Below, in pieces: positions 1-13,091 of a DNA stretch of 46,533 nt. Source of the stretch: a virus. The first letter of the stretch is position 1; every line of letters begins with the position of its first letter. A program made the translations under genes and the position numbers. The notes below the pieces were generated by a model. The model was not told the origin of the DNA, did not search any database, and was given only the letters and a program-made list of their open reading frames with translations. The DNA lies in IMG/VR virus record IMGVR_UViG_3300045988_175774; one strand, 5' to 3'.

Positions 1-40
1 CTTTTGATATAATAATTATATCATAATTTTTAAAAAAAAT

Positions 41-81
41 AAAGTTATATAAATATAAACTATTTATATAACTTTATGCTC
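41..81 (-). terminator. 16-bp perfect hairpin just downstream of the stop of the 101..349 gene
   Basis: Inverted repeat taaagttatataaata / tatttatataacttta with a 5-nt loop, read directly from the sequence. Confidence 0.4.
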
Positions 82-100
82 TATTATTTTATTCTTTTGA

Positions 101-349
101 TTAAAATAAATCATCTTCATCTTCATCTATTGTTTTTCCATAGTTATCATCTACCTTTAAAGCGTGCTTCATTTCATAAGTCATGAAAAGACCTACTATA
201 AAGCTAGCTATTACTATAGATATAACTGATGCTACCCAAAGCGGTAAACCAAAAGCCCAACTTATAATCAGTCCAAGACAGTAAATCCCTCCAAGGTACA
301 GCATAATTGTTCCTAATATGCAAGCAATTCCCATTAAAAAGAAAAACAT
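101..349 (-). CDS. small membrane protein with two predicted TM helices and an acidic C-terminal tail
   Basis: 82-aa ORF with two long hydrophobic stretches and a DEDEDD-rich C-terminus. Confidence 0.5.
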   Translation of the reverse strand: MFFFLMGIACILGTIMLYLGGIYCLGLIISWAFGLPLWVASVISIVIASFIVGLFMTYEMKHALKVDDNYGKTIDEDEDDLF

Positions 350-366
350 TTTTAATTTTCTCCTTC

Positions 367-663
367 CTATTTTATTTTCTTCATCATCATATCTCCGTCA
401 TAAAGGATATATTCTGGCGGAGTATGCGGAAAGAAAAATTCTTTAATTTGTTCAATTTCTTTTATTGTAATACCTGACTTAAAATCTCCTGAAAGTGTAA
501 CTGCCGCCAATGTTTCAGCGTCAGTAATCTCAGTGTGATTATACCAGTTTTCTGCTTTTGCTTTAAAACTTGCTTTCAAATTTAAAGTTAGCGGAAAACC
601 TTCTAATTTAAAGAAAGTTTCAATTTCTTTCATTGTAGCTTCGATCAGTTTTGTGTTTATCAT
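367..663 (-). CDS. hypothetical early protein; start moved to the in-frame ATG at 663
   Basis: RBS agaaagagg lies 8 nt upstream of the ATG at 663. The track start at 702 falls inside the TGaTATAAT promoter. Confidence 0.5.
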   Translation of the reverse strand: MINTKLIEATMKEIETFFKLEGFPLTLNLKASFKAKAENWYNHTEITDAETLAAVTLSGDFKSGITIKEIEQIKEFFFPHTPPEYILYDGDMMMKKIK

Positions 664-690
664 ACATATTACCTCTTTCTTTTTCTTTTT

Positions 691-712
691 TGATATAATC
701 ATTATATCATAA
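691..712 (-). promoter_or_regulatory. extended -10 promoter (TGaTATAAT) for 367..663; a near-copy of the motif sits at 1-12 and at ~6089-6102
   Basis: rc of 691-712 reads ttatgaTATAATgatt. The ~40-nt block ttttgatataat..cattatatcataattttt..aaaaaataaa repeats at 1-45 and 689-733. Confidence 0.5.
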
Positions 713-759
713 TTTTTTTAAAAAATAAAATATATTTCTTTTATTAAAATAAAAAAGAT

Positions 760-798
760 TATTATAATTAAGCAGAGTGAAACTCTGCTTAATTATAA
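760..798 (-). terminator. 17-bp perfect hairpin terminator after the AAA ATPase gene
   Basis: attataattaagcagag-tgaaa-ctctgcttaattataat; on the minus strand it is followed by a T-rich run. Confidence 0.55.
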
Positions 799-825
799 TA
801 TAATATAAGTTAAAATTAACTTAAA

Positions 826-1947
826 TTAAAGTGCATAATGAATTCTTTTACTAGGAATTTTTTTAATCAGCATGTATTCTGGTTTTGCAGAAATATATTT
901 ATTGTAAAGCTCTAAGAATTGTTTATCTTTTGGATTATTTAATTCTTCTTCAATAACACACTGTAAAGATTTACCTGGAATAATACAGCCATATTCTTTG
1001 TTGTAAATAACATCTTTTGGGTTGAAAGTACACATTAGTACGTTAAGCTTAAGAACGCTATCTTCAAATTCATAGATTCTGCTCTTATTATCAAACATAT
1101 CTACTAAACAATGGGTACATTCCGCAATAGCTCCATTCGAAAAATGAATAGTTAAATTATAATCATCGCCAGTAAGATGCAAAATATTCAAATCTTTAAT
1201 AGCCTCTTCAAAAGTTTCTTCATTTTGTAATTCAAAAGCAATGGCTCTTAAACAATCATAATTCAAATATATTTTTTCTGAAAAACTAATTATTTTATCA
1301 ATTTCTTTATATTGAGATTCCAAGAGATGATCTTCCATATACTCACGGATTTCCTCTGGCGTTGGATATTCAAAGCGAAAGTGATAATGAAAACGTCCTG
1401 GTCTATTAACTAAATAATCATTTAATCCTGTTAAATGATTACAAGTAATAACGAAAAGTTTTTTGCCCATGGCTATTCCATCAAACAAACTTAGCAATTC
1501 TGTTTGAGCTTTTTCATTTCCACCGCCATGTTTTCCGGAAAAAGTCTTATCAAATTCATCAAAAAGAATTATCACTTCTTGGTCAATAGAGTTAAGATAA
1601 TTTGCTATACCAGGTATATAGCTATTAACAATAATAACTGGATAACCTTTTTTAATACCTTCAATAACAAGAAGTTTTGAGAATAGAGATTTACCAATTC
1701 CCTTATCTCCGCTTAATATAACTCCTAAGTTGCGGTCAAATTTAGCGTAAGATCTTAGTACTTTCTGTACTTTTGATAAATGGACACCATAAATTTTTTC
1801 ATTTACTTTAATTTCTGCATATTTTTCTAAAGAAAAACCAGAATTGGGATTAAAACAAACTTGATACGATTGCGGCGGGAGTTGCGTATAAATTTGTATA
1901 CTATCATCATAAATTTTAAAGTTATTCCCAGTATTTATTGTTCTCAT
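826..1947 (-). CDS. classical AAA ATPase (Cdc48/FtsH-type AAA module)
   Basis: Walker A GDKGIGKS, Walker B IILFDEFD, sensor-1 TCN and second-region-of-homology LVNRPGRFHYHF (RPGRF arginine-finger box) are all present. Confidence 0.8.
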   Translation of the reverse strand: MRTINTGNNFKIYDDSIQIYTQLPPQSYQVCFNPNSGFSLEKYAEIKVNEKIYGVHLSKVQKVLRSYAKFDRNLGVILSGDKGIGKSLFSKLLVIEGIKKGYPVIIVNSYIPGIANYLNSIDQEVIILFDEFDKTFSGKHGGGNEKAQTELLSLFDGIAMGKKLFVITCNHLTGLNDYLVNRPGRFHYHFRFEYPTPEEIREYMEDHLLESQYKEIDKIISFSEKIYLNYDCLRAIAFELQNEETFEEAIKDLNILHLTGDDYNLTIHFSNGAIAECTHCLVDMFDNKSRIYEFEDSVLKLNVLMCTFNPKDVIYNKEYGCIIPGKSLQCVIEEELNNPKDKQFLELYNKYISAKPEYMLIKKIPSKRIHYAL

Positions 1948-1996
1948 AAAGTAATCCTTTCTTTTATTTATATTATAGTATATTTTTTTAAAAAAA

Positions 1997-2503
1997 TCAA
2001 TTCCAATTTTGCACGATTCTCAAAGGAGCGTTACAACAACCAGAAGCTAAAGCACTTTCCCCTCTTGTTAAAGAGGAAGAAACATCTCCATGAGCTACTA
2101 GTTTACCGCATTTTTTGCAATAGATTTCATACTTATACAGATCACGATGAGGTTTCCATATCTGCCCTTCCGCGAATCGTTTAGGATTTTTAATTCCCAT
2201 TCTTCGCATCTCCGCTTTCCAATACATATCATGACCATGAGGTTTTCCAGTATCCCATATTACAAAAGCATGAGCCAATTCATGCATTGCCGTAGTAATA
2301 ATTGCTTCTTTTGTTCCAAATTTTAATAATTTTTCAGAAAATTCAATAGATTCAATTCTCATAGTAAGATCACTTGTATGTTCAAATACAACTCGACCTA
2401 ACATAGTAACTAAATTAGGATTGATTACGATTGGACAGTAAATTGTTTTATTTCTTTCTTTCGCGATATAATTACATAAGCTAAGCATTTCTTTTTCAGT
2501 CAT
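1997..2503 (-). CDS. SprT/Wss1-like zinc metalloprotease with a C-terminal zinc ribbon (paralog 1)
   Basis: HELAHAF (HExxH) plus a downstream HGHD third ligand; YCKKCGKL...CC zinc ribbon. Paralogous to 2520..3023. Confidence 0.7.
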   Translation of the reverse strand: MTEKEMLSLCNYIAKERNKTIYCPIVINPNLVTMLGRVVFEHTSDLTMRIESIEFSEKLLKFGTKEAIITTAMHELAHAFVIWDTGKPHGHDMYWKAEMRRMGIKNPKRFAEGQIWKPHRDLYKYEIYCKKCGKLVAHGDVSSSLTRGESALASGCCNAPLRIVQNWN

Positions 2504-2519
2504 ATAAAATATACTCCTT

Positions 2520-3023
2520 TTACCAATTTTGTTGTATTTTAATAAAAGATTTACAGCATTTTGAAGAGTATAACTCTGGATATTTTGTTATATCACAAGC
2601 TTTATCTCTAGCTCCTATCAATTTTCCGCATTTCTTGCAATAAATAGTATATTTATTTATTTTTTCAGGTAATCCCTCGTAAAGCTGACCTTCCGCGATA
2701 GCCTTTGGATTAGCACCAAGTCTTTTCGCGATATCCTGCCAAATCTTATCATGTCCGTGTAATTCACCTGTTGTCCAATAAACAAAAGCGTGAGCTAATT
2801 CGTGTTTTATAGTATCCATAATTTGAGCTTCTGTTCCAAACTGAAGAAAATTTTTAGAGAACTCAATTTTCTTAATGCCGAAACCGTCTTCATATTTTAC
2901 CTGACCAAGAGTTTTAGTTAATCTTCCATTCTCTACAATAGGACAAGTAATGATAAAACCATTTTCTTTTGCTATCTTTTCACAAATTTCATTTACTTGT
3001 TTAATTGTCATTAACTGCATCAC
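2520..3023 (-). CDS. SprT/Wss1-like zinc metalloprotease with a C-terminal zinc ribbon (paralog 2)
   Basis: KHELAHAFVYW, HGHD and YCKKCGKL...CC; collinear similarity with 1997..2503 over the full length. Confidence 0.7.
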   Translation of the reverse strand: MMQLMTIKQVNEICEKIAKENGFIITCPIVENGRLTKTLGQVKYEDGFGIKKIEFSKNFLQFGTEAQIMDTIKHELAHAFVYWTTGELHGHDKIWQDIAKRLGANPKAIAEGQLYEGLPEKINKYTIYCKKCGKLIGARDKACDITKYPELYSSKCCKSFIKIQQNW

Positions 3024-3101
3024 AATCCTTTCTTTTAATATATATATTATATTATATTTTTATGAAAAAATCAATGAGAATTATCGGCGAGTAGTTGAGT
3101 A

Positions 3102-3130
3102 TTGAAAATGTATAAAAAATATGTTATAAT
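3102..3130 (+). promoter_or_regulatory. sigmaA-like promoter TTGAAA-N17-TATAAT for the plus-strand island
   Basis: ttgaaa at 3102-3107, tataat at 3125-3130, exact 17-nt spacer. Confidence 0.55.
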
Positions 3131-3162
3131 ATTTAATATAAACAAGAGAAAAGAGGGCGGAA

Positions 3163-3339
3163 TTGACAAGAGAAGAATTAAGTGCGGAATTGGGTATAAG
3201 CGAGAATAGGATATTACGTCACTGGCGGGAAGTGTGTAATAGTTATGAGCGGATTGGGATTAGATTGATTAAGATAGGAAAAGGCGAAAAGGCGGAGTAT
3301 GGTATTTTAAGAAAAGACGAGACTGTAGCTAGGTTTTAG
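3163..3339 (+). CDS. small helix-turn-helix protein (TTG start, 58 aa)
   Basis: The ORF is stop-free in a stop-rich A/G/T region. RBS aagaggg lies upstream. Translation LTREELSAELGISENRILRHWREV... is HTH-like. The ORF track missed it. Confidence 0.4.
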   Translation: MTREELSAELGISENRILRHWREVCNSYERIGIRLIKIGKGEKAEYGILRKDETVARF

Positions 3340-3349
3340 AGGAGGGTAT

Positions 3350-3553
3350 ATGGTAACAGTTGAGAATACAGACGGAACTATAAACACATATAGCAATTTT
3401 TGTTGTAATCATATAGATATAAAACAAAATAAAAGAGAAGGTTGGAGAATGTGTAAATATCTTGTTTCTGGAGAGTGCGGCAAGGAGAAAATTTTTTTAA
3501 TGAAAGACATTGGTAATAATTGTATTAGATGCCTTTCGTACGAACCAGAGTAG
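3350..3553 (+). CDS. Cys-rich zinc-ribbon small protein
   Basis: RBS ggaggg; CC..H...C..C...C..C pattern over 67 aa. Confidence 0.5.
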   Translation: MVTVENTDGTINTYSNFCCNHIDIKQNKREGWRMCKYLVSGECGKEKIFLMKDIGNNCIRCLSYEPE

Positions 3554-3866
3554 AAAGAAGAAGAAGAAGATTTTGACGCGGATGAAGCTGACTATGAAGA
3601 TCTTTAAGGTGAGAATTGCCGCATTATAAAAAATAGAGGATTTTCTTGGGAGAGAATTTTAAGATAAGAGGATATTATGACGAGAAAAGTTTAACTGTTT
3701 TGTTAAAAGACGAATTAAAAAGCTCTAATCGTTAAGAAAAAATTTAACAAAAGGTGTTGAAAAAGTGTACAAACCGATGATTTGTTGAAATTTTTAAGCA
3801 AATGTTGAAAATATTTTAAGTATAAATTTTATGTTTAAATATAAGGAGGAATATAAGGAGGAAAAT

Positions 3867-4484
3867 ATGGAAATTCAAAAAAATTCAAGACAAATACCTA
3901 GTAATAAAATTTATACTGCTAACAAGAAGTATTCAGATATTCTATATGGATATTTACAACATAATTCTCTTTTAGATAAAGAGTGTGGAATTAGGTATAT
4001 ACTTAAAAAAGATATTAGTTTTGTAAAAATTGCTAATGAATTAAAGATGCATAGGCAAACAGTTTCAAATAAATTTAAAGTTTTGATGGAACAAAATTTG
4101 ATTAGATACAATGAAGAGCTAAAAAGATATGAATTAGTTACTATTGATAAAACATTAGCAACTTTATTACCAGATGAAACAGTTAGGATTTGTTATAACA
4201 CTTTGCAAGATAGATGCTTAAGTATATTAGCTTATTTATTAAAAACTTATATTCAACATAATGAATCTTCTTGTCAAATAAATTTAGATGTTATAAAAGA
4301 ATATGTTGGAATTTGCGTTTCAAATAGAGGGTGTAATAATCAGGTTATAAAAGATAGCCTTTTAATATTACAAAAATTAGGTTTTATTCAATATCATACA
4401 GAAAGAAAACTAGATGGAGAAACAGGCGGTATAAGAACTATTTATATTTTAGATAAAGTATATAATTTTGTTACTTTTGATTAA
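3867..4484 (+). CDS. dual winged-helix DNA-binding protein (possible replication initiator or regulator)
   Basis: AGGAGG sits 7 nt before the ATG at 3867; the track start at 3831 lies within the duplicated RBS. Two wHTH-like segments are ISFVKIANELKMHRQTVSNKF and NLDVIKEYVG..GFIQY. Confidence 0.55.
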   Translation: MEIQKNSRQIPSNKIYTANKKYSDILYGYLQHNSLLDKECGIRYILKKDISFVKIANELKMHRQTVSNKFKVLMEQNLIRYNEELKRYELVTIDKTLATLLPDETVRICYNTLQDRCLSILAYLLKTYIQHNESSCQINLDVIKEYVGICVSNRGCNNQVIKDSLLILQKLGFIQYHTERKLDGETGGIRTIYILDKVYNFVTFD

Positions 4485-4518
4485 AAGATATAGTAAATAA
4501 AATACTAAGTAAAACTGC

Positions 4519-4552
4519 AAAATGTCGAAAAAGTGTAACACAATATAATAGT
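4519..4552 (+). repeat. 34-nt direct repeat, copy 1 (aaaatgtcgaaaaagtgtaacacaatataatagt)
   Basis: Identical 34-mer occurs again at 4639..4672. Confidence 0.9.
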
Positions 4553-4618
4553 AGAAGTAATTTCATTACTTCGTATTCAAGCACTTCGTGCTTTCATACT
4601 CGTAATGAAATTACTTCT
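4553..4618. other. long imperfect hairpin (17-bp outer stem plus inner 6-bp stem) lying between the 34-nt direct repeats
   Basis: agaagtaatttcattac ... gtaatgaaattacttct, with inner aagcac / gtgctt. Confidence 0.6.
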
Positions 4619-4638
4619 TAGCCGCCCGATAATTTTGT

Positions 4639-4672
4639 AAAATGTCGAAAAAGTGTAACACAATATAATAGT
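4639..4672 (+). repeat. 34-nt direct repeat, copy 2
   Basis: Identical to 4519..4552. Confidence 0.9.
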
Positions 4673-4749
4673 GGTATTAAAGTTATACCAGAAATATTAT
4701 ATTATATTATATTATATTATACATAACTATTATATAATAATAATAATAT

Positions 4750-4786
4750 AGGTAATGTATCATACCGAAGGTATGATACATTACCT
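4750..4786. other. 17-bp perfect hairpin (aggtaatgtatcatacc-gaa-ggtatgatacattacct), preceded by a (tatta)n microsatellite
   Basis: Perfect inverted repeat read directly from the sequence. Confidence 0.7.
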
Positions 4787-4899
4787 TAGTGTAAATTAAA
4801 ATGAAGAGTTTTATGCGGGGTAGGGATATTTAGTAGTTGAATCCGCTCTGTTTTAGAGGGACTCTTGTTTAATTTTAAAATGTCAAGGAACGTTTTAAA

Positions 4900-5600
4900 A
4901 AATGATTTGAAAATTTTAAGGTTTAAATAAATTAGGAAAGTTTTTTAGAAGGTATGAGAAAAAGTAAGAAAAGAAGTATAGTATACTTAGAGAATGGCAA
5001 AGAGTATTGCTGAATAATAACAAAGAGTTGGGAAGTTTTACTAAAAACGAGGTGTAGTTTTTTGGTTAGAAGAGTATGTAAGAGAGTGTTTAAATTATAA
5101 GAGAAGTATGGGAGTGCGGAGTTGAGTTTAATTAAAGTGCTTCCGCTTTTGAAATACAAGGTTAAATAAAAATTGTGGGTTACAGAATTGCTTAAATAAA
5201 ATTATTAAAATTTTGCGTGAGGAGTTTGATTTTGGAGAGAATTAAGGGTAGTTTTAATAAAATATAAGGATTGGATTAAAGGCGTGTGGGATTAAGGTAA
5301 TAAAATATTTTAGAATTAGAGAGAATTGAGGATAGGTTAATAAAAATAATAAGACTGGATAAAGAAAATTTGATGTTTAGATTAAGAGAGAGTATAAAGT
5401 TGGATTAAGAGAGAAGAAGGTTGAAGTATATAAAATAATAAGCGGAAATGAGGATTTTGAGATTGGAGTATGCGAGAGTAGAATTGGAGTGTAGAGAGGA
5501 TGAGAGTGAGGCATGAGTCTGAAAACATGGCAGAATATGTGAAAAAAGTGTGAAAAAATTGTGAAAAAAATTGTGAAAAAAATTGTGAAAAAAATTGTGA
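4900..5600 (+). other. about 700 nt non-coding purine+T tract with almost no cytosine on the plus strand
   Basis: Per-line counts give 0-6 C per 60 nt and G about 28%. Only low-complexity spurious ORFs occur on either strand. Confidence 0.8.
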
Positions 5601-5601
5601 G
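5538..5601 (+). repeat. tandem (t)tgtgaaaaaa(a) repeat, 5 copies of 12-13 nt
   Basis: gtgaaaaaagtgtgaaaaaattgtgaaaaaaattgtgaaaaaaattgtgaaaaaaattgtga. Confidence 0.9.
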
Positions 5602-5625
5602 GGGTCAGTCTCACTCTCCCCTCTC

Positions 5626-5656
5626 CCCTCCTACCTCAGAGCTCTTTATACGAGCT
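5626..5656 (-). terminator. hairpin cagagctc-tttatac-gagctctg overlapping the stop of 5646..6041
   Basis: Inverted repeat inside the only GC-rich patch of the region. Confidence 0.4.
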
Positions 5657-6041
5657 CTGAGAGGAATTTTCTAATAATTTCATCATCTGATAAAGCTTTT
5701 TCATTCTCCCGTTTTACATCTCTTTTCAGTTTATCTGTATCTACTCTTCTAACTCCAAATCTTGCCCTTGAAAGATTACCCATTTTACCAAAAGCCTCCA
5801 TAGTCTTTTCCATCTTAGTTAACTCTGTCATAAGATTCTTTCTATCCTCAGCAGATTCTTTTTTATCAATTGCCCCAAGAGCAATTCCATACGTTACAAA
5901 CGCGTCAACCAATTTGTTTCTTGCATCTACAATCGCCTTTGTGCGGTTTTCCTTGGTCTGCTCCGCTTCGATCTCAGCTTTTACCGCCTTAAGAATTTCA
6001 TCTGTTGTTTTGCCTTCAGCGATCATTTTTTTAATATCCAT
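5646..6041 (-). CDS. hypothetical protein, helical and charged
   Basis: 131-aa ORF with RBS aaaaggagaac; a TGaTATAAT extended -10 sits upstream at ~6089-6102. Confidence 0.6.
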   Translation of the reverse strand: MDIKKMIAEGKTTDEILKAVKAEIEAEQTKENRTKAIVDARNKLVDAFVTYGIALGAIDKKESAEDRKNLMTELTKMEKTMEAFGKMGNLSRARFGVRRVDTDKLKRDVKRENEKALSDDEIIRKFLSELV

Positions 6042-6641
6042 AGTATGTTCTCCTTTTGAAATGTTTATTTGTTTTTCTTTATGTATATATTATATCAAAA
6101 AATTATAGAAAATTCAAAGGGGAAGACATCTTTCTAGCTATTGTTGAGCTTAATTAGTTTCCAAAAATTTTAAATGAGATAAGGCTCGACGTAAAAATGG
6201 AAGGCGGAAAATAAAAATGGCTTTTTTTACTATTGTATCATATATTTTATTAAAAATCAAGCGGAGAGAAGTGAGGTATGCCATAATTGCGGGATTCTAG
6301 AAAGCCGAATGGAAATTCCAAACATCTAGGAAAAAAGCCCATATAGGCGATCTTTGGGGTAGGTCGGATCCGAGTCCTTTGAACTCGGACCGCTGATTAT
6401 ATCACAGCCGCCGCGTTTTGTCAATAGGCAAATTATACAAATTTTTCATTATTTTTTTAGTAATATTGCACAAATAGTCATTTTTACCAAATTTTCATTA
6501 AAAAATAAGATTTTTTTGGTAAAAATGACTAAAATAAATAAAAATGTACAAAAAAATAGCCAAAAACCGCGTAATTTTTGGCTATTTTGTATAGAATATA
6601 GAATTTTATTGAATTTTTATAAGAAATTTTGGTTATTTTGT

Positions 6642-6680
6642 ATAGAATAGTCAGAAATGTAAATTTTCTGACTATTCTAT
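6642..6680. terminator. 16-bp perfect hairpin downstream of 6706..7107 (T-run on the plus side)
   Basis: atagaatagtcagaaa-tgtaaat-tttctgactattctat. Confidence 0.45.
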
Positions 6681-6705
6681 GTAATTTTTAGTTACCTCAG
6701 ACTGC

Positions 6706-7107
6706 TTACTCCTCTACAGTTTCCTCTTCTTCTTTTGCAAGAGAAAAGTAAGGAACTCTTTTTTCAATTGTCCTGACCACTTCTTCAGATTCGACAAGCT
6801 GTTTAAGAAGAGCAGATAACTTCTGAGGAGAAAGTTTGTTCATCTCAGAGTTTTCTTTAATCATGGTTGTAACTGTAACAGGTTTACCAAATAACTCCAG
6901 AGCCACAAGAATGAGCTTTTTAATTTCCTCATTTTCTTTCTGATTTTTGGTTTTTTTACCGCTGGAAGATTTTTTATTCAACAGCTCAATTTCATGGCTG
7001 AGAAAGTTAAGTGCTTCTTCTTTTGGTTCAAAGTCACTTTCTTCCAGAAAAGCTCTAATAGTTTCAAACCAATCTTTTTTTGTCATTTTGTCTTTCATCA
7101 TATTCAT
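6706..7107 (-). CDS. hypothetical protein, family A paralog 1 (winged-helix-like core, acidic C-terminus)
   Basis: Paralog of 8408..8827 with a shared block ELFGKPVTVTTMIKEN..KLS.QKLSALLK..VVRT.EKRVPYFSLAKEEEE. RBS aaagaaagaggt. Confidence 0.65.
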   Translation of the reverse strand: MNMMKDKMTKKDWFETIRAFLEESDFEPKEEALNFLSHEIELLNKKSSSGKKTKNQKENEEIKKLILVALELFGKPVTVTTMIKENSEMNKLSPQKLSALLKQLVESEEVVRTIEKRVPYFSLAKEEEETVEE

Positions 7108-7134
7108 TACCTCTTTCTTTCTTTTGATATATTT

Positions 7135-7163
7135 ATTATAGCATACTTTTTTATTTTTGTCAA
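7135..7163 (-). promoter_or_regulatory. consensus promoter TTGACA-N17-TATAAT for 6706..7107
   Basis: plus attata at 7135-7140 and tgtcaa at 7158-7163; the promoter-plus-leader cassette is duplicated at 7417..7445. Confidence 0.65.
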
Positions 7164-7194
7164 TTACTTTTTTATTTTTTTTCTTTTCTGGTGC

Positions 7195-7389
7195 TTACTT
7201 AATATAAGCACCAGCAATAGACTTAACAGAGCCATCCGCGTTGAAAAAGATAACATTATTTTGAATAACGTTGATACCTTTATTCTTTGCAAAATTTCTG
7301 AACACAAAGTCTGTATTCCAGAGTTTAATAAAATCAGCTTTTCTCATGTTTGCAAAACCTTTTGTGTAGTTCATTGTTCTCATAGTCAA
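7195..7389 (-). CDS. small hypothetical protein (64 aa)
   Basis: Own copy of the promoter/leader cassette (leader ..tatatcaaaagaaagaaagaggtattgactATG). Confidence 0.5.
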   Translation of the reverse strand: MTMRTMNYTKGFANMRKADFIKLWNTDFVFRNFAKNKGINVIQNNVIFFNADGSVKSIAGAYIK

Positions 7390-7416
7390 TACCTCTTTCT
7401 TTCTTTTGATATATTT

Positions 7417-7445
7417 ATTATAGCATACTTTTTTGCTTTTGTCAA
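7417..7445 (-). promoter_or_regulatory. consensus promoter TTGACA-N17-TATAAT for 7195..7389 (cassette copy 2)
   Basis: plus attata at 7417-7422 and tgtcaa at 7440-7445; about 60 nt is identical to 7109-7170. Confidence 0.65.
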
Positions 7446-7452
7446 TTACTTT

Positions 7453-7758
7453 TTAATAAAAATAACTGTCTAAAATCATACTTTCTACAATAAGATTCTT
7501 ATTATCATAATAAGCAAGGGCAATAGAAGTTGCGTAAGCGTCAAGCCCTGGACTTTCAAAAATACATTCAGAAGAGACACTAAACTTATAGTTTTTTTGC
7601 TCAGGATTTTTTTCTAAGAAATCAGAAATAGCTTCACTTAAACGCTTGCCATTTTCATTCATTTCCATATAATTCTCTCTTTCGGAATCCCAAAAACCAT
7701 CTTCTTCCAAAAAAATACAAAGATTACTCATTACGTCTTCGAATAAATTTTTTGCCAT
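7453..7758 (-). CDS. hypothetical acidic protein (101 aa)
   Basis: ORF with RBS; no recognisable motif. Confidence 0.55.
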   Translation of the reverse strand: MAKNLFEDVMSNLCIFLEEDGFWDSERENYMEMNENGKRLSEAISDFLEKNPEQKNYKFSVSSECIFESPGLDAYATSIALAYYDNKNLIVESMILDSYFY

Positions 7759-8024
7759 GCTATCTACCTCTCTTGTTTTTATTTATTATTTATTTTATGT
7801 ATACATTATATCAAAAGAAAAAATAAAAGTCAACGGCATTTTGCACAAAGTATAATAAAATATTTTGTCTATTTTGACTATTGACAGGTTTAGCATTGTG
7901 CATAATAGAGAAAATTGGCGGATTTTGATATAAAATTTTGTTCATTTTACCTATTGACAGAGATTTTTGTACAAAACGGAGAATTTTGGGATAAAAAATT
8001 TTTTATTTTTGTGCATTTTTTCTC

Positions 8025-8118
8025 TTGACAAAATCGTCAGCGTGTGGTATAATGGATATTTCGGTCGCCTTGACCCAAGGCGACCCGCTATTATACCATA
8101 CTTTCGGGTGCTTGTCAA
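8025..8118. promoter_or_regulatory. element A: face-to-face consensus promoters flanking a GC hairpin
   Basis: Plus side: ttgaca 8025-30, 17-nt spacer, TGgTATAAT 8048-53. Hairpin: ggtcgcc-ttgacccaa-ggcgacc at 8063-8085. Minus side: TTGACA-N17-TGgTATAAT (plus tgtcaa 8113-18, attata 8090-95). Confidence 0.6.
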
Positions 8119-8407
8119 TAGGCAAAATAAACAAAATAAAAAATTTTTTGAGCCTTATTTTTGTTACATTTTCACAAAATTATAGACTGGGACTCTTTGT
8201 GCAACAATACTAAAATTATAAAAATTTTTTGGCTATTTTTTGTAATTTATGTGCATTGACTTTTTTGTTCTCTGGTATTTTTGAATAAAAAACATCCCTC
8301 CAGCAGCGGATTTTTTGTGCAAAAAGTAGAAAAAAAATGCATAAAAAAGGAGGACGGATTTTGTGCAATCCGCCCTCTTGACAAGGTTTATAAGTTACTT
8401 TTTAGTT

Positions 8408-8827
8408 TTACTCTTCTTTCTCAGTTTCTTCTTCTTCTTCTTTTGCAAGAGAAAAGTAAGGAACTCTTTTTTCAACTGTCCTGACTACTTTGCCCCCTTC
8501 AATCATTTTTTTCAACAGTGCAGATAACTTCTGAGAAGAAAGCTTACTCATTTCGGCGTTCTCTTTAATCATAGTTGTAACTGTAACAGGTTTACCAAAC
8601 AGCTCTAAGGCAATTTCAATAAGTTCCATAAGCTCCTCATTTTCTTTAATGTGAGCTGTTTTCTTTTTGCCTGGTGCTGAAGATTTCTTATTTAACAGTT
8701 CAATCTCGTGATTGATAAAGTCAAGTGTTTCTGTTTTCTTGTCAAAATCTTCTGTTTTTTCTACGATACCTGCCAGCAGTTTAAAAAAGTCTTTTTTTGT
8801 CATTTTGTTTGTGTTTGTCATAATCAA
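8408..8827 (-). CDS. hypothetical protein, family A paralog 2
   Basis: Paralog of 6706..7107; the 3' coding DNA is also near-identical (..ctcttcttcttttgcaagagaaaagtaaggaactctttttt..). Confidence 0.65.
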   Translation of the reverse strand: MIMTNTNKMTKKDFFKLLAGIVEKTEDFDKKTETLDFINHEIELLNKKSSAPGKKKTAHIKENEELMELIEIALELFGKPVTVTTMIKENAEMSKLSSQKLSALLKKMIEGGKVVRTVEKRVPYFSLAKEEEEETEKEE

Positions 8828-8862
8828 ATCCCCTTTCTTTCTTTAAAAATTTTTTTGGTGGC

Positions 8863-8900
8863 TTGCGGTCGGTGGTCGATTTTGCTGACCATCCGAACCG
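8863..8900 (-). other. GC-rich nested stem-loop in the 5' leader of 8408..8827
   Basis: gcggtcgg-TGGTC-gattttgc-TGACCA-tccgaaccgc lies between the promoter (8933..8961) and the RBS. Confidence 0.5.
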
Positions 8901-8932
8901 CTTGAAATTGTTTATCACTTTGTTACAATGTT

Positions 8933-8961
8933 ATTATATTACTTCTTTTTGCTCTTGTCAA
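8933..8961 (-). promoter_or_regulatory. consensus promoter TTGACA-N17-TATAAT for 8408..8827
   Basis: plus attata at 8933-38 and tgtcaa at 8956-61. Confidence 0.6.
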
Positions 8962-8969
8962 GCACTTTT

Positions 8970-9344
8970 TTATTTTTTCTTTGATGGTCTATGCTTGATT
9001 AACGAAATTGAATATTCCGCACCGCCAATTTTGAAAGTAATTTCTTTCTGCGGATTTTTGATTATCACGCTTTCAAAGTTCATTTCCTCAACTTCTTTCA
9101 AGTGACTTGCCAAAATTTCAATGATTTTGACTTTTTCCGCATCCAATTTTACCTCACGTTTTTTCGTGCTTTTTTTCTCTGGTGTACTCTGAACATAGTT
9201 CTTAATGCCTTTAGCCTTAATCTCCATTTCCGCCATTTCAAGAGCTTCCTCTTTAGTTACCGGTTCTCCGTCCGCTTCAAATTCTTTCATCAGCTTAATA
9301 GCAAGCTTTTCGATTGCATCTGCGGTCACTGTTGTTTTAGCCAT
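8970..9344 (-). CDS. hypothetical protein (124 aa)
   Basis: ORF with RBS aaaaaggatgtgatataacATG. Confidence 0.6.
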   Translation of the reverse strand: MAKTTVTADAIEKLAIKLMKEFEADGEPVTKEEALEMAEMEIKAKGIKNYVQSTPEKKSTKKREVKLDAEKVKIIEILASHLKEVEEMNFESVIIKNPQKEITFKIGGAEYSISLIKHRPSKKK

Positions 9345-9392
9345 GTTATATCACATCCTTTTTAAAATTTACTATTAACTTGTTACAATGGT

Positions 9393-9421
9393 ATTATATC
9401 GCATCTTAGCTTAAAAGTCAA
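9393..9421 (-). promoter_or_regulatory. promoter TTGACT-N17-TATAAT for 8970..9344; a ~60-nt cassette is duplicated at 10161..10219
   Basis: plus attata at 9393-98 and agtcaa at 9416-21; copy 2 has attata at 10183-88 and agtcaa at 10206-11. Confidence 0.6.
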
Positions 9422-10128
9422 GCACTTTCGTGTAATTCTTTTCTTTTTTTCTGCGGAAGTCTCCAGCATGACGGCTTAATACTTCTATCCATTTTTTTAT
9501 GCTGGTCAAAACATTTTTTCATAATTTCGATTTCAATTTTTACATCTTCTAAGCCCGTATGAGATTCTACAAAATCAATATTCTTTTTAATATATTTATA
9601 GCATACCTCAGCGTTAGTTAAAAGATTGCCTTTTTCAGACTCAAATCCGTTTTTCTCAGCAAATTTGATATAGGTGTTTGTACTTAAAATCATCTGACAA
9701 GCCATGTTCCAAATACAAAAATATTCTGTACCATAAGGGAAAAACCAGCGAATAAAACTTTTGCTATGGTATCTGATAGCATTATTCAAAGCTTTTCTAT
9801 CAAAAGCCATATTGTAAGCCCCAACTTTTTTCACATTATATTCTTTCATGTCTGTAAACATCTGTTTTCTAATATTGAAAATGCTTTTCATGGTTCTTTT
9901 CCCGCTTTTTAAATCATCCCAGTATTTCGGAATTTTTTCAGCGTAGTAGGCACTATTCATAGCTTCTTTCAAGTCGATAAACGTTTCAGCGACTACAAAG
10001 CTTCTTTCGGTGACAATGTTACCGTGTCTATTTACAATAGCATAGCCAATATCATAAGGAATTGGCTCGTTTACACTATTCGCAGTTTCTGTATCCAATA
10101 CCATGAAAAACTCTTTTCTTCTACTCAT
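9418..10128 (-). CDS. DnaQ-like DEDDh 3'-5' exonuclease
   Basis: Exo I MVLDTETAN, Exo II MAFDRKAL and Exo III ESHTGLEDV are present. Start set at ATG 10128, with RBS gaggaaa 7 nt upstream; the track start at 10143 is a TTG. Confidence 0.7.
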   Translation of the reverse strand: MSRRKEFFMVLDTETANSVNEPIPYDIGYAIVNRHGNIVTERSFVVAETFIDLKEAMNSAYYAEKIPKYWDDLKSGKRTMKSIFNIRKQMFTDMKEYNVKKVGAYNMAFDRKALNNAIRYHSKSFIRWFFPYGTEYFCIWNMACQMILSTNTYIKFAEKNGFESEKGNLLTNAEVCYKYIKKNIDFVESHTGLEDVKIEIEIMKKCFDQHKKMDRSIKPSCWRLPQKKRKELHESA

Positions 10129-10217
10129 TTTTGATTTCCTCAACTTTCATTTATTTTTTTACTATTAACTTGTTACAATGGTATTATATCGCATCCTAGC
10201 TTAAAAGTCAAGCACTT

Positions 10218-10403
10218 TCATAAAATTTTTTCAAAATCTTTTAACTGCTGACTCGCAGATAATTCTTTGATTTTATATTTATGCAATCTATTGTTTAAAC
10301 AATACTCGCACCCACCGTGGTTTCTGCAATGCACAGACACGGCTTTTGCTTTGCGGTATTCTTTTCTATGCTCTTTTCCACTTCTGATTGCTTTATCCAT
10401 CAT
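10218..10403 (-). CDS. small Cys/His-rich putative zinc-binding protein
   Basis: HCRNHGGCEYC motif in a 61-aa ORF. Confidence 0.45.
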   Translation of the reverse strand: MMDKAIRSGKEHRKEYRKAKAVSVHCRNHGGCEYCLNNRLHKYKIKELSASQQLKDFEKIL

Positions 10404-10420
10404 GTTTAACCACCTACTTT

Positions 10421-10894
10421 CTATAAGAAATTTTTTAATACTTCCATGATATTGTTTACATCAAAACTATTTTTGCCCCACTCTTTTCTATTGCGTTCCT
10501 CATCATCAAAAAGCCATCCCTTACAATCAACGACAGTACTTTTCGGTGTGCCATAGTTTACAATTTTGATTTCGTCCCATTTAATACTAGGTAAGTGTTT
10601 TTCAAGCCATGCAAGTTTTACACTTGTTACCGCTGTATTATAAGAAGCTGACCCGCTTTTACTTAACCAGCTTACAATACCAATTCTATAGCCATTAGCT
10701 TGTAACTTGTGAAGCACTCTTGCGAAAACTGAAAAATTGAAAAGTGGTTTTGCTACTTTGTATGGTGTAGTGTCTTCTTTTTCCAAATATGCTAACCAGT
10801 TTTCCACGCCGTAGAAGTTAGCAAGTGTGCCGTCCATGTCAAAATAAATAGTTTCTTTTGTGCTCATCATTTTTTTAACTGTATTATCCATCAT
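10421..10894 (-). CDS. HAD-superfamily phosphatase, resembling the 5'(3')-deoxyribonucleotidase (NT5C-like) family
   Basis: HAD motif I IYFDMDGTLANF (DxDGT); size about 157 aa. Confidence 0.65.
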   Translation of the reverse strand: MMDNTVKKMMSTKETIYFDMDGTLANFYGVENWLAYLEKEDTTPYKVAKPLFNFSVFARVLHKLQANGYRIGIVSWLSKSGSASYNTAVTSVKLAWLEKHLPSIKWDEIKIVNYGTPKSTVVDCKGWLFDDEERNRKEWGKNSFDVNNIMEVLKNFL

Positions 10895-11331
10895 AATAAT
10901 TACCAGTCCTTCCTTTTTTGATTATCGCAAGTGCCTTGCGACCGACCGCTCATTATGTAAGCTTTGCTTTATTTCTGTTTTAAGTTTAATGTCCTTCGAC
11001 AAGTATATATTACTACATCTTAGCGAAAAAGTCAAATTTATTTTTTATTGTGCAAAGTGATGAAATTTTACATAAAAATCATAGTATTTTTGTTAAAATG
11101 TACAAATGTAGAAAATTAATGCGGATTTAGGCGGATTCTTGTGCATTTTGCTACCTTAAATATTACATATTGTGTTTCTGCGTGTCAAAAAAGGTATGAT
11201 TTTTTATTAAAATTTCGTCACTTTGCACAAGGTGTAGAAAATTTTGATATTATTTTATTAAATTTTGTGCATTTTGTATACCATGTCAAAAAATGGGATT
11301 TTTTTAATTTATTTTTTGTGCAAATTACCTA

Positions 11332-11435
11332 TTGACAAAAAGGTGCTAGATGTGGTATAATAAAATTTCGGGGTGCCCCGACCCCGAACGGACTTTGCCC
11401 TCTTCCATTATAACATACTCGAGCCACCTTGTCAA
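11332..11435. promoter_or_regulatory. element B: face-to-face consensus promoters flanking a GC hairpin
   Basis: Plus side: ttgaca 11332-37 and TGgTATAAT 11356-61. Hairpin: ttcgggg-tgccccga-ccccgaa at 11367-88. Minus side: TTGACA-N17-TATAAT (tgtcaa 11430-35, attata 11407-12). Confidence 0.6.
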
Positions 11436-11503
11436 GAGTTTTTTTCAAAAAAAATGCACAAATTTTGGGATAAAAATTTTGAAAAATTTGTGCATTTTTT
11501 CTC

Positions 11504-11599
11504 TTGACAAAATGTCTCAACTATGTTATAATGGAAGGCTCGCGAGCAGTCAATGCGAGCCGAGCCGGCTATTATACCACATTTTCCGCGACTTGTCAA
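11504..11599. promoter_or_regulatory. element C: face-to-face consensus promoters flanking a GC hairpin
   Basis: Plus side: ttgaca 11504-09, 17-nt spacer, tataat 11527-32. Hairpin: ggctcgc-gagcagtcaat-gcgagcc at 11537-61. Minus side: TTGACA-N17-TGgTATAAT (tgtcaa 11594-99, attata 11571-76). Confidence 0.6.
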
Positions 11600-11721
11600 C
11601 CCCTTTTTAAAAAAATTTTTATTTTCGTCATTTTGCACAAAAATAAAATTCAGCATTTTGCACAAAAGAACAAAAGTCTAATTTACTTAGACTTTTGTTA
11701 TAAAAATTTTTCTATTTATGA

Positions 11722-11913
11722 CTAATTATTTTCATCATTTATTATTAAATTCACGTGATTTCTTTTTTTTCGTTTCATTATTGCTTCATAAGCAATTTCT
11801 ACTATTTCTTTTGAAATGTTTTGATTCTCTGCTATTTTACAGAATATAATTACTGTGTCATTTTCAAATCCTTTTGCTTGAATCATTTTATCCATCATCT
11901 CTGTCCTTGTCAT
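11722..11913 (-). CDS. small hypothetical protein, family B paralog 1
   Basis: MTRTEMMDKMIQAKGFEND..; RBS agagagg. Paralog of 12890..13030. Confidence 0.5.
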   Translation of the reverse strand: MTRTEMMDKMIQAKGFENDTVIIFCKIAENQNISKEIVEIAYEAIMKRKKRNHVNLIINDENN

Positions 11914-12202
11914 TATTGTTTTCCTCTCTTTCTTTAACTGTCTTTATTATATCACAAGAAGCTGATTTTGTCAATCCCTTTTTATAAAAATCAACTCCTT
12001 CAATTTCAAAACATTTGCGATAAGCGTTAATACAATTATACCAAGAATCATCATCGCTTACACACTTTGTCAGAATTTCATCATTCCATCCATCTTTAAA
12101 CAGGGGAAGCCAAACATTAGTTATTACGTCTTCATTAATGTATTTTCTGATGAACGAATTCATTCGTCTGAGATAATATTTTCTAATTTCAATTATTTCC
12201 AT
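11888..12202 (-). CDS. hypothetical protein (104 aa)
   Basis: ORF overlapping neighbouring genes; no recognisable motif. Confidence 0.5.
   Translation of the reverse strand: MEIIEIRKYYLRRMNSFIRKYINEDVITNVWLPLFKDGWNDEILTKCVSDDDSWYNCINAYRKCFEIEGVDFYKKGLTKSASCDIIKTVKEREENNNDKDRDDG
11946..11974 (-). promoter_or_regulatory. consensus promoter TTGACA-N17-TATAAT for 11722..11913, lying inside the 3' end of the upstream ORF
   Basis: plus attata at 11946-51 and tgtcaa at 11969-74. Confidence 0.55.
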
Positions 12203-12205
12203 CTC

Positions 12206-12403
12206 TTAAAAACTCCATTCTTGTTTTGCTCTTTTTTTGATATCATTATAATTTATTTTGTTAATCCTTTTTCTCCTCTTTAAAATTCTATTGACTTGTT
12301 TTTTAATATCCTTTAAATCTTCAAGACTGCAATAAATTTTATCACCCCGACTGTCTTTAATTGTATAAGGATAACTCTTATCATCGCTTTTTTCTACCGT
12401 CAT
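12206..12403 (-). CDS. small hypothetical protein; start moved to the ATG at 12403
   Basis: RBS agagaggtaagg precedes ATG (MTVEKSDD..); it shares the attatcaaatgaaagagagg leader. Confidence 0.5.
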   Translation of the reverse strand: MTVEKSDDKSYPYTIKDSRGDKIYCSLEDLKDIKKQVNRILKRRKRINKINYNDIKKRAKQEWSF

Positions 12404-12431
12404 TTTCCTTACCTCTCTTTTATTTGATAAT

Positions 12432-12460
12432 ATTATACTATAGGTCTTGGCTTTTGTCAA
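12432..12460 (-). promoter_or_regulatory. consensus promoter TTGACA-N17-TATAAT with a palindrome over the -35 (ataggtcttg..caagacctat)
   Basis: plus attata at 12432-37 and tgtcaa at 12455-60. Confidence 0.6.
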
Positions 12461-12476
12461 GACCTATTTTATTTTT

Positions 12477-12731
12477 TTATTTTGGAAGAACAACTTCAGC
12501 TTTAATCGGTTCTACTTTCTGAGATGCTTTAAAAGCTCTAATCTGTCCAGTAGCAAGGTTAACCGCCATGACCTTCCCTTGATGTTTGTCTAAGAAAAGA
12601 CCACTACTTTTATCAATAACCATGTATAATCCAATTTCATCAGTACCAGTTCTTTTACTAAAAAAAGTACTTCCTACTGTCAATTTCTCGATACAAGTTC
12701 CTACTGTTTTTTTATCAAAGTTGATTTTCAT
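12477..12731 (-). CDS. hypothetical protein; start moved to the ATG at 12731
   Basis: RBS agagagg precedes ATG (MKINFDKK..). Confidence 0.55.
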   Translation of the reverse strand: MKINFDKKTVGTCIEKLTVGSTFFSKRTGTDEIGLYMVIDKSSGLFLDKHQGKVMAVNLATGQIRAFKASQKVEPIKAEVVLPK

Positions 12732-12763
12732 TTTTGTTTTCCTCTCTTTCATTTGATAATATT

Positions 12764-12792
12764 ATTATACTATAAAGTCGGCTACTTGTCAA
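12764..12792 (-). promoter_or_regulatory. consensus promoter TTGACA-N17-TATAAT for 12477..12731
   Basis: plus attata at 12764-69 and tgtcaa at 12787-92. Confidence 0.6.
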
Positions 12793-12889
12793 CTATATTT
12801 TTTAAATGTTTAATTGTTTTTTCTCATTTTTACTATCTTTTTCTTTTTTCTTTGTCGCATGAGTTTTAAAACTCATGCGACTTTTACTA

Positions 12890-13030
12890 TTATTTTATTA
12901 CTACTGCGTAAGCAAGTTCTACTGTTGTATTTGAAACTTCGCTTTCTGCTAATTTACAAAACCAGATTGTTAGTTCATCTTCAAAACCTCTTTCTTTAAT
13001 CATTTTATCCATCATTTCTTTTCTTGTCAT
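12890..13030 (-). CDS. small protein (46 aa), family B paralog 2; missed by the ORF track
   Basis: rc translation MTRKEMMDKMIKERGFEDELTIWFCKLAESEVSNTTVELAYAVVIK; the DNA is collinear with 11780-11915. Confidence 0.45.
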   Translation of the reverse strand: MTRKEMMDKMIKERGFEDELTIWFCKLAESEVSNTTVELAYAVVIK

Positions 13031-13062
13031 ATCTAGCAACCACCTTTCTTTGAACTATCTTA

Positions 13063-13091
13063 ATAATATCACAAAAGCTTGAGTTTGTCAA
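13063..13091 (-). promoter_or_regulatory. promoter TTGACA-N17-TATTAT with a 14-nt palindrome over the -35
   Basis: plus ataata at 13063-68 and tgtcaa at 13086-91; palindrome cacaaaagcttg / caagcttttgtg. Confidence 0.55.

Follow-up and report, generated by a model that had tools for sequence, protein, structure and literature searches.

The DNA analyzed here (the window) is a 46,533-nucleotide stretch of a viral genome (IMG/VR record IMGVR_UViG_3300045988_175774). Near its first nucleotides, three adjacent genes are encoded on the minus strand. Two of these code for SprT-type zinc metallopeptidases with a C-terminal zinc ribbon: SprT1 (2520..3023, 167 amino acids as listed) and SprT2 (1997..2503, 168 amino acids), a diverged paralog whose catalytic and zinc-ribbon residues are intact. 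The third gene (826..1947, read from 1947 to 826) codes for a single-domain classical AAA ATPase of 373 amino acids. All three open reading frames (ORFs) are located where the original prediction placed them. However, that prediction described the two protease genes as downstream of the ATPase gene, whereas in the direction of transcription they lie upstream of it. Judging from their homologs, which number in the thousands, the three are real genes rather than chance ORFs. For SprT1, a start at ATG 3020 (166 amino acids) is more likely than one at GTG 3023. The ATG candidate has an AAAGGA ribosome-binding site upstream, and the homologous protein P0001 begins with MQLM.

Three smaller genes flank this group. 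On the minus strand, a 111-amino-acid gene (367..702) serves as a clade-specific marker of synteny downstream of the genes of interest, and a hydrophobic, transmembrane-like 82-amino-acid gene (101..349) comes next in the same leftward array. At the other edge, a 58-amino-acid gene (3163..3339, plus strand) is transcribed divergently. The 111-amino-acid protein has no family match in Pfam, PHROG or NCBIfam, and a Pfam search with the 82-amino-acid protein yields a weak holin-family match under the cut-off. No tRNA or Rfam element was found in the window, and positions 1-6000 have zero nucleotide matches among cultured phages. A PADLOC search returned nothing meaningful, with one weak PDC-S73 match for the ATPase and zero for the SprT proteins. 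The phage probably derives from the human gut, and its host is presumably a low-GC Firmicute.

The SprT and ATPase units each stand behind their own copy of a sigma-70-like promoter, and the ATPase unit has its own terminator; all promoters and terminators at this locus are consensus-based predictions. An early promoter (P1, 3046..3074, minus strand) with the arrangement TTGATT-17-TATAAT precedes SprT1. A near-identical copy (P2, 1972..2000, minus strand), which belongs to repeat families D2/D9, is situated directly before the ATPase gene, and a third copy with three mismatches (701..729, minus strand) precedes the 111-amino-acid gene. These three copies of the promoter pattern in the window compare with an expectation of 0.01, and the promoter cassette occurs seven times within positions 1-18000. 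The 58-amino-acid gene has a divergent promoter of its own (3102..3130, plus strand; TTGAAA-17-TATAAT with a TG element, 11 of 12 matches). A strong intrinsic-terminator-like hairpin (760..800, minus strand), with a 19-bp stem followed by a T-run, lies 26 bp past the ATPase stop codon. Another terminator-like site at 2285-2268 lies within the stretch of SprT2 that encodes HELAH and was taken to be a chance occurrence.

The predicted products of the first two genes are SprT-type zinc peptidases, each with a C-terminal zinc ribbon. Both pass the Pfam SprT-like model PF10263 (cut-off 25.6 bits), SprT1 with 52.2 bits (E = 6.1e-14) and SprT2 with 43.2 bits (E = 3.9e-11), and the two proteins are 45% identical (BLASTP, E = 5e-48). 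In both, the HELAH motif spans residues 74-78 and the HGHD motif residues 89-92. An alignment of 24 sequences shows no variation at H74, E75 and H78. The third zinc ligand, the H91 within HGHD, is conserved to at least 90% in that alignment and does not vary in 80 relatives. The zinc ribbon comprises four invariant cysteines. The original prediction was correct on these motifs and on the number of cysteines, but the ribbon is built from a CxxC knuckle (129/132) and a CC knuckle (156/157) rather than from a second CxxC.

An AF2 model of SprT1 (pLDDT 86.9) contains a metalloprotease lobe and a zinc-binding subdomain arranged as in SPRTN. Foldseek ranks the SprT domain of human SPRTN first (6mdw and 6mdx; E = 9e-4, probability 1.0, TM 0.53), followed by minigluzincins. 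The SprT/Spartan part of the original family assignment thus holds, both for the Pfam model and for the fold, but its Wss1 part does not, with no WLM family among Pfam matches at E<=1. SprT1 is basic (pI 8.9), and the zinc-ribbon part is more so (pI 9.1-9.2). A regular-expression search for the SHP box and the VIM found neither in SprT1 or SprT2.

SprT1 matches 643 cultured-phage records, although its identity to any cultured-phage protein among the matches listed is at most 42% over the aligned part. Like the phage SprT-like peptidases already catalogued (PF10263; PHROGs 3768, 6445, 9897 and 1006), which are named "SprT-like protease" in actinobacteriophages, the window proteins are small, stand-alone HExxH...H enzymes encoded among early or accessory genes, with a patchy distribution and one to three copies that vary between close relatives. 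Many phage SprT matches cover the protease lobe only, whereas the subfamily described here has the full C-terminal zinc ribbon of the bacterial type. In size and in this two-part layout the proteins also resemble bacterial SprT (about 150-170 amino acids), and the bacterial SprT models NF003339 and NF003421 align to SprT near full length. However, the scores (38.3 and 28.4 bits, respectively) fall well short of the 113 and 175 bits required for equivalogs, and the NCBIfam search gave sub-threshold matches only. The phage proteins are therefore homologs, not orthologs, of bacterial SprT.

The third gene product belongs to the classical AAA clade by its sequence hallmarks. It passes Pfam AAA PF00004 (34.8 bits, cut-off 21.2) and matches PHROG 2376, annotated as "ATPase", with E = 3.5e-101 (residues 1-288 on profile positions 1-282 of 363). 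The protein carries Walker A (GDKGIGKS, 80-87), Walker B (ILFDEFD, with D130 and E131), sensor-1 (T168-C-N170) and the second region of homology LVNRPGRF (R182, R185). As the original prediction held, the classical hallmarks are all present, and they are invariant across 72 homologs (G80/G85/K86, D130/E131, T168-C-N170 and N181-R-P-G-R185-F). A pore-loop-like Y110-I-P112-G113 motif includes an inserted proline; residue 110 is aromatic and G113 is conserved in 71 of the 72 homologs each. This motif is missing from a distant homolog of an E. coli phage, and alignment with such distant members is restricted to residues ~22-280.

The layout of the ATPase consists of an N-terminal beta-hairpin (27-42), the AAA alpha/beta domain (54-195), a helical lid (197-252) and a beta-rich C-terminal domain (261-363) with a conserved [IL]-H-Y-x-[VLI] end. 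The C-terminal domain and this tail are traits of the PHROG 2376 branch to which the protein belongs. In the monomer model, the loop of the second region of homology (181-191) has low confidence, as expected of an inter-subunit element. The best PDB matches are Afg2, NSF, p97-D2, paraplegin, Mpa, Bcs1 and YjoB, with Bcs1 as the top Foldseek match. The protein contains a single AAA domain, preceded by a ~52-amino-acid region with a beta-hairpin, and has neither a p97 N-domain nor a D1-D2 tandem.

Members of PHROG 2376 are found in Herelleviridae, in Phapecoctavirus/phi92, in the 126-129 kb Lactococcus phages AM8 and phiL47, and in the jumbo phages CBB, BF and fHe-Yen9-03. Their neighbors differ from phage to phage and include tRNA arrays, NAD-salvage genes, ligase and kinase. 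This family is possibly the "BCS1-like" AAA+ group of jumbo phages (Iyer et al. 2021, PMC7824862). We found no characterized member of the ATPase family in the literature. The ATPase and the SprT proteins both belong to large phage families that have already been catalogued. The original statement that this is not a characterized phage function is accurate for the biochemistry, but the genes themselves have been described (PMC7824862).

To compare relatives (loci designated L003, L004 and so on), the slot occupied by the three genes was delimited by homologs of the 58- and 111-amino-acid genes. Two SprT genes plus the ATPase gene occupy the slot in the window and in L088. One SprT gene plus the ATPase gene is found in L003, L084, L004 and L101, the ATPase gene alone in L089, L091 and L093, and SprT alone in L102. 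In L099, which shares just the upstream 217-amino-acid homolog, SprT also occurs without an ATPase gene after it. The contigs with SprT only are short (2.3-2.9 kb) and ~11 kb of those with ATPase only is covered, such that a partner gene could be elsewhere. Homologs of the 58-amino-acid gene border the slot in L003, L084, L088, L089, L093, L101 and L102, with or without SprT or ATPase. The 111-amino-acid homolog follows the ATPase gene in L003, L004, L045, L089, L091, L093 and L101, and in L102 it follows the SprT and 73-amino-acid genes. As a general partner of the ATPase, the 111-amino-acid gene was rejected, since an iterated HMM search found it in the near clade only (14 ORFs in 12 loci).

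At this slot, what separates close relatives is the clean insertion or deletion of precisely one gene. L101 and L089 share 92-93% DNA identity on both sides of a 500-bp segment (L101 616-1115) that corresponds to the SprT gene and is missing from L089. L003 lacks window positions ~3000-2561, a clean deletion of SprT1, and keeps SprT2 alone at 96% identity; the DNA flanking the deletion is 84% identical toward the promoter (window 3719-3001) and 93% identical toward SprT2 and the ATPase gene. In L102, a 254-bp segment with a 73-amino-acid ORF stands in place of the 1212-bp ATPase gene. The indels at the SprT position start right after a promoter or ribosome-binding site in close relatives, and the same promoter stands ahead of whichever gene comes first. 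P2 is present in L088, L003 and L084 and absent in L101 and L004. In L004 and L101, SprT and ATPase are separated by a gap of 14-18 bp with no internal promoter, which indicates that the two genes are truly co-transcribed there.

Beyond the near clade, there is essentially no linkage between the two families. The ATPase family comprises 4152 homologs and 390 cultured-phage records. Among the 80 best IMG/VR ATPase loci, SprT is nearby in only two, L003 and L004 (6 kb flanks, phmmer E<=10). A reciprocal profile search, in which 53 IMG/VR loci of the SprT subfamily were located with the 24-sequence alignment, found an ATPase gene within 5 kb in two, the same L003 and L004 contigs. Exact-motif scans overlook known SprT variants such as HEMAHVL in L004, and so we make no claim of genome-wide absence from such scans. 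When ORFs within 3 kb were clustered at 83 ATPase loci, no universal neighbor emerged beyond shadow ORFs, and the neighbors vary. The largest cultured SprT groups are phages of Mycobacterium (213), Klebsiella (118) and Pseudomonas (89). These genera are outside the top ATPase genera listed and therefore have at most seven ATPase records each, and the ATPase-rich Enterococcus, Staphylococcus, Lactobacillus and Lactococcus are outside the top SprT genera listed. In Phapecoctavirus genomes with both families (e.g., Mt1B1_P17), the genes are ~21 kb apart on opposite strands. The pair is retained in a narrow clade only, where each gene is also found alone.

Given that close relatives gain and lose SprT and ATPase separately, the genes resemble accessory early genes that are independent of each other. 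We consider it probable that the two SprT genes and the ATPase gene form distinct early-gene cassettes that happen to be neighbors and can each be exchanged on their own, rather than an unfoldase-protease machine. On this reading, SprT and ATPase are adjacent by chance, in a plastic early region and in this lineage only. The locus would be part of a hyperplastic early-gene array in a large phage, presumably transcribed early by the host RNA polymerase, and the phage's own sigma factor would drive the structural genes in the opposite half of the genome. Transcripts that start at the SprT promoter and read through could co-express all three genes, although neither SprT nor the ATPase would require the other.

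SprT1 and SprT2 are predicted to function as zinc endopeptidases of the kind represented by bacterial SprT, and their basic zinc ribbon probably binds nucleic acid. Their distribution and the literature suggest that they most likely cut one or more host DNA-associated or defense proteins during takeover. The patchy SprT-like peptidases of jumbo phages, present in one to three copies, have been interpreted as cleavers of host proteins (Iyer et al. 2021, PMC7824862), and a SprT-like gene of a mycobacteriophage is toxic and causes filamentation (PMC7474061). No anti-defense role of a phage SprT was found in the literature. The two diverged copies and the variation among zero, one and two copies probably reflect changing targets. 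The ATPase would be a stand-alone, ring-forming protein remodeler of the classical AAA type, with a substrate or partner of its own across thousands of SprT-free phages. The natural zero-, one- and two-copy SprT variants and the ATPase-replacement variants in near-identical gut phages offer ready isogenic comparisons for the roles of SprT and PHROG 2376.

An alternative that we regard as unlikely is a facultative two-component ATP-dependent protease, analogous to Wss1/SPRTN-Cdc48, in which the AAA ring extracts or unfolds DNA-bound proteins and feeds them to SprT. SprT would then be an optional part that depends on the ATPase and not the reverse. The ATPase is of the same broad clade as Cdc48/p97 and is encoded nearby; it retains all the classical AAA catalytic motifs and the pore-loop-like motif, and SprT is basic with an SPRTN-like fold. 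Where SprT occurs in the near clade, its usual position, seen in four lineages, is directly upstream of the ATPase gene and in the same orientation, which is also what a facultative partnership would look like.

However, the dedicated AAA-SprT operon of the original prediction does not withstand the test of co-conservation (two of 80 and two of 53 loci). Fifty-one of the 53 viral SprT loci have no adjacent ATPase gene, as is also the case for the syntenic L102 and L099, and in the window the ATPase gene is served by a promoter and a terminator of its own. The ATPase genes of the SprT-containing L101 and the SprT-free L089 are ~92% identical in DNA, and ATPases with and without a linked SprT are interspersed in a neighbor-joining tree. 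The single-gene indels in near-identical relatives also argue against a partnership of this kind. The phage SprT proteins lack the SHP, VIM, UBZ, PIP and SIM elements and the WLM match of SPRTN/Wss1. The ATPase, unlike Cdc48/p97, has a single AAA domain instead of an N-D1-D2 arrangement and is not co-conserved with SprT. In addition, no fusion of SprT to an AAA domain was found among the 150 best SprT representatives (80-254 amino acids). There is a slim chance that in the window, L004 and L101 the AAA ring serves SprT as an optional unfoldase that strips DNA-bound host or defense proteins, a minimal counterpart of Wss1/SPRTN-Cdc48 in prokaryotic viruses that arose independently of the eukaryotic interaction motifs. 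A partnership, if true, would amount to viral convergence on a eukaryotic DNA-protein-crosslink repair module.

A role for the SprT proteins in phage genome maintenance, in which they would repair DNA-protein crosslinks on replicating phage DNA as SPRTN does and independently of the ATPase, appears slightly less probable still. The best fold match is the SprT domain of SPRTN including its zinc-binding subdomain, the zinc-ribbon part is basic, and the alignments to bacterial SprT models are nearly full length, although the scores are below the equivalog cut-offs. However, SprT genes are dispensable in relatives that are 92-93% identical in DNA, and their variable copy number and patchiness are more typical of conflict genes than of housekeeping repair (PMC7824862). 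The host toxicity of the mycobacteriophage gene (PMC7474061) points the same way. A split FtsH-like protease with the AAA ring and the HExxH peptidase ring on separate polypeptides, also proposed originally, is highly improbable: The classical AAA domain does adjoin HExxH proteins and FtsH is among its distant matches, but the SprT/minigluzincin fold contradicts this reading (with no M41 match in Pfam at E<=1), the ATPase has no transmembrane segment and most closely matches Bcs1, YjoB, NSF and Afg2 instead of FtsH, and the two genes are gained and lost independently.

The organization of independent cassettes resembles the promoter-terminator cassettes (PeSLs) of T4-like phages, for which promoter-flanked cassette shuffling has been outlined (PMC2839356, PMC4122927). 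In both cases, small accessory genes lie between repeated regulatory sequences, and close relatives differ by gene-sized clean indels at the repeats. In contrast to PeSLs, the window represents another phage group with other promoter sequences, and the stem-loop terminator follows the ATPase gene but not every cassette. The end points of the indels suggest that recombination may take place at the promoter repeats. The repeated-promoter array implies that T4-style modular shuffling is probably also at work in large phages of gut Firmicutes. In L003, the 111- and 82-amino-acid genes are duplicated together.

The two SprT-like zinc peptidase genes and the classical AAA ATPase gene at 826-3023 are likely to be independent cassettes. 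In order of transcription, SprT1 (3023/3020..2520) is followed by SprT2 (2503..1997), the ATPase (1947..826), a 111-aa gene (702..367) and a gene for an 82-aa hydrophobic protein (349..101), all on the minus strand. Profile matches and catalytic motifs bear out the three genes of the original prediction. Only one point of substance needs correcting: the proteases, placed downstream of the ATPase, are both upstream in the direction of transcription. The SprT and ATPase genes belong to known, uncharacterised phage families, and the members here are new.

The window sits in a syntenic clade in which these genes occupy a slot between a divergently transcribed 58-aa gene (3163-3339) and the 111-aa gene. 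Every combination occurs between the two markers: two SprT genes with the ATPase (the window and the related viral locus L088), one SprT with the ATPase (L003, L084, L004 and L101), the ATPase alone (L089, L091, and L093 with a 54-aa ORF before it), and SprT alone (L102). In L099, a short contig that shares just the upstream 217-aa homologue, SprT also lacks a following ATPase and is succeeded by unrelated small ORFs. The SprT-only contigs are short and the ATPase-only contigs were read over ~11 kb, the absence of a partner holding for that span. Three comparisons are decisive. The DNA of L101 and L089 is 92-93% identical on both sides of 500 bp, the SprT gene, that are missing from L089. L102 retains SprT and a 100-aa gene, and has a 254-bp, 73-aa ORF in place of the 1212-bp ATPase gene of L101. 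In L003, the sole loss is the SprT1 reading frame (window ~3000-2561); the promoter and SprT2 are retained, with flanking DNA 84% identical to the window on the promoter side and 93% on the SprT2/ATPase side. Therefore, neither gene requires the other at this slot. The ATPase is unchanged when SprT comes or goes, and SprT-linked and SprT-free members are interspersed in a neighbor-joining ATPase tree drawn without support values. L003 also carries, downstream of the ATPase, a tandem duplication of the gene pair for the 111-aa protein and the 82-aa membrane protein (2639-3919 of that locus).

The two families seldom travel together. With 4152 homologues in the protein collection, the ATPase family is very large; its 390 cultured-phage records fall in Herelleviridae, Phapecoctavirus/phi92, large Lactococcus phages (AM8, phiL47) and jumbo phages. 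A SprT gene lies within the 6-kb flanks of only two of the 80 best IMG/VR ATPase loci (phmmer E<=10), namely the 92%-identical L003 and the 56%-identical L004. The same two contigs are the only ones, among 53 IMG/VR loci encoding the SprT subfamily, with an ATPase within 5 kb. At E<=1e-3, that subfamily comprises 4883 cluster representatives, of which the top 150 are all 80-254 aa and include no AAA fusion. In cultured phages the families are mostly in different genera; Phapecoctavirus Mt1B1_P17 has both, ~21 kb apart on opposite strands. By the proposed check of co-occurrence in other phages, AAA and SprT-like genes are mostly unlinked. What lies next to the ATPase differs between phages: Enterococcus phages have tRNA arrays there, and others have ligase or kinase genes. 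In the unannotated faecal phage MT835544.1 (7025-10966), three ORFs after the ATPase homologue look by eye like an NAD-salvage-type cluster of RNA-ligase-type, PRPP-synthetase-type (Prs) and nicotinamide phosphoribosyltransferase (NadV) genes.

Both SprT proteins pass the Pfam SprT-like threshold, and they align nearly end to end with bacterial SprT family models at scores under the equivalog cut-offs. They are 45% identical, basic (pI ~9), and keep HELAH, HGHD and four invariant cysteines. The SprT1 model (pLDDT 86.9) best matches the human SPRTN SprT domain, then minigluzincins. These results agree with the predicted Cys4 SprT-like metalloproteases; WLM, the Wss1 peptidase domain, has no match among the Pfam results for the three proteins. 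Judged from distribution and literature, both proteins are probably active zinc endopeptidases whose basic zinc ribbon lets them work on or near nucleic acid. They probably target host proteins. Early position, dispensability, variable copy number and diverged paralogues together fit a pattern that Iyer et al. read in this way (PMC7824862), and a mycobacteriophage SprT-like gene, being toxic and inducing filamentation (PMC7474061), fits the same reading. Less probable is a role in repairing protein-DNA crosslinks on phage DNA.

Promoters and terminator were assigned as consensus matches. A TTGATT-17-TATAAT promoter (3074-3046, minus strand) precedes SprT1, a near-identical copy (2000-1972, minus strand) directly precedes the ATPase, and a third related promoter precedes the 111-aa gene; this 29-nt pattern occurs three times versus 0.01 expected. 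A predicted terminator with a 19-bp stem lies beyond the ATPase stop codon. Relatives have the same promoter in front of whichever gene comes first. In the leftward 18 kb, a repeat finder places the promoter cassette seven times (2-43, 688-729, 1959-2000, 3033-3074, 7122-7163, 14465-14506 and 17838-17879), and further promoter-like repeat families (D1, D4, D6, D7) occur in 1-18000. From sequence, the leftward half appears to be built of small-gene cassettes, each with its own promoter. Its layout resembles that of the promoter-terminator cassettes reported to mediate modular shuffling in T4-like phages (PMC2839356, PMC4122927).

In L004 and L101, the ATPase begins 14-18 bp after SprT without its own promoter, which implies co-transcription. 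This is the main point in favor of a facultative unfoldase-protease pair, which we nevertheless consider improbable, since each gene is present without the other at the slot and the docking elements of the eukaryotic system are missing. In SPRTN and Wss1, the C-terminal tails carry SHP or VIM motifs for binding p97/Cdc48, and the p97 N-domain receives them (see also PMC10308373, PMC4559962). In contrast, the phage SprTs are limited to a protease lobe and a zinc ribbon, with no SHP or VIM motif in either, and the ATPase has a single AAA domain and lacks an N-domain of the p97 type. The domain assignments of the original prediction were right, whereas its partnership is unsupported, given the rare linkage, the single-gene indels and the full range of slot states. 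A split FtsH-like unfoldase/protease is rejected because M41 has no match among the Pfam results for the three proteins.

The ATPase is an AAA protein by profile, with a Pfam AAA score of 34.8 bits (cut-off 21.2) and an E value of 3.5e-101 to PHROG 2376 'ATPase'. All 72 aligned sequences share invariant Walker A, Walker B and sensor-1 motifs and an invariant NRPGRF second region of homology, and a pore-loop-like Y-I-P-G motif is nearly invariant. The best solved relatives by sequence (E around 1e-5) are Afg2/Drg1, NSF, paraplegin, p97-D2 and Mpa. An AlphaFold2 model (72 homologues, pLDDT 81.3) runs from an N-terminal beta-hairpin through the AAA alpha/beta domain and the helical lid to a beta-rich C-terminal domain (261-363), modeled with confidence, and a disordered tail. 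This tail includes a nearly invariant [IL]-H-Y-x-[VLI] end (residues 369-373; 72 family members), which is reminiscent of AAA-unfoldase docking tails, though off the HbYX register. The nearest folds are Bcs1 and YjoB, the latter described as a substrate-specific chaperone (PMC9565160). Family distribution and literature suggest that the protein is most likely a classical AAA remodeller or chaperone that acts on its own. The conserved tail and the private beta domain are candidate sites for binding a partner, which would have to be present in the thousands of phages without SprT.

At ~30% GC, the window is part of a phage genome. Its portal protein places it closest, among cultured phages, to Phage Phass-1 from the human gut (39%) and to Enterococcus phages of 134-142 kb (32%); a human-faecal scaffold without annotation encodes a portal protein 76% identical. 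Small genes fill the leftward half (1-17900). There, four ORF-poor stretches (7838-8034, 11047-11743, 15624-15896 and 16241-16426) hold dense repeat families with 'TTTGTGCATTTT...CTATTGACA' and 64-65-nt tandem repeats, possibly clustered promoters, operators or an origin-like region. Another ~1.1 kb (4500-5640) is without a convincing ORF, gave no match in Rfam and tRNA searches, and carries the 12-nt tandem repeat TGTGAAAAAAAT (x5.4, 5538-5600). The rightward half begins with a phage sigma factor (17957-19117, plus strand; PHROG 5767, E 1.7e-51), then terminase, portal and structural genes, which implies an early/late switch between host-type and phage-sigma promoters. A single 2843-aa ORF (33959-42490, plus strand) ends this module. 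A 251-aa protein (16485-17240, minus strand) has a microbial-type PARG (poly/mono-ADP-ribose glycohydrolase) catalytic domain (PF10021, E 3.6e-26), and could possibly counter ADP-ribosylating host defences.
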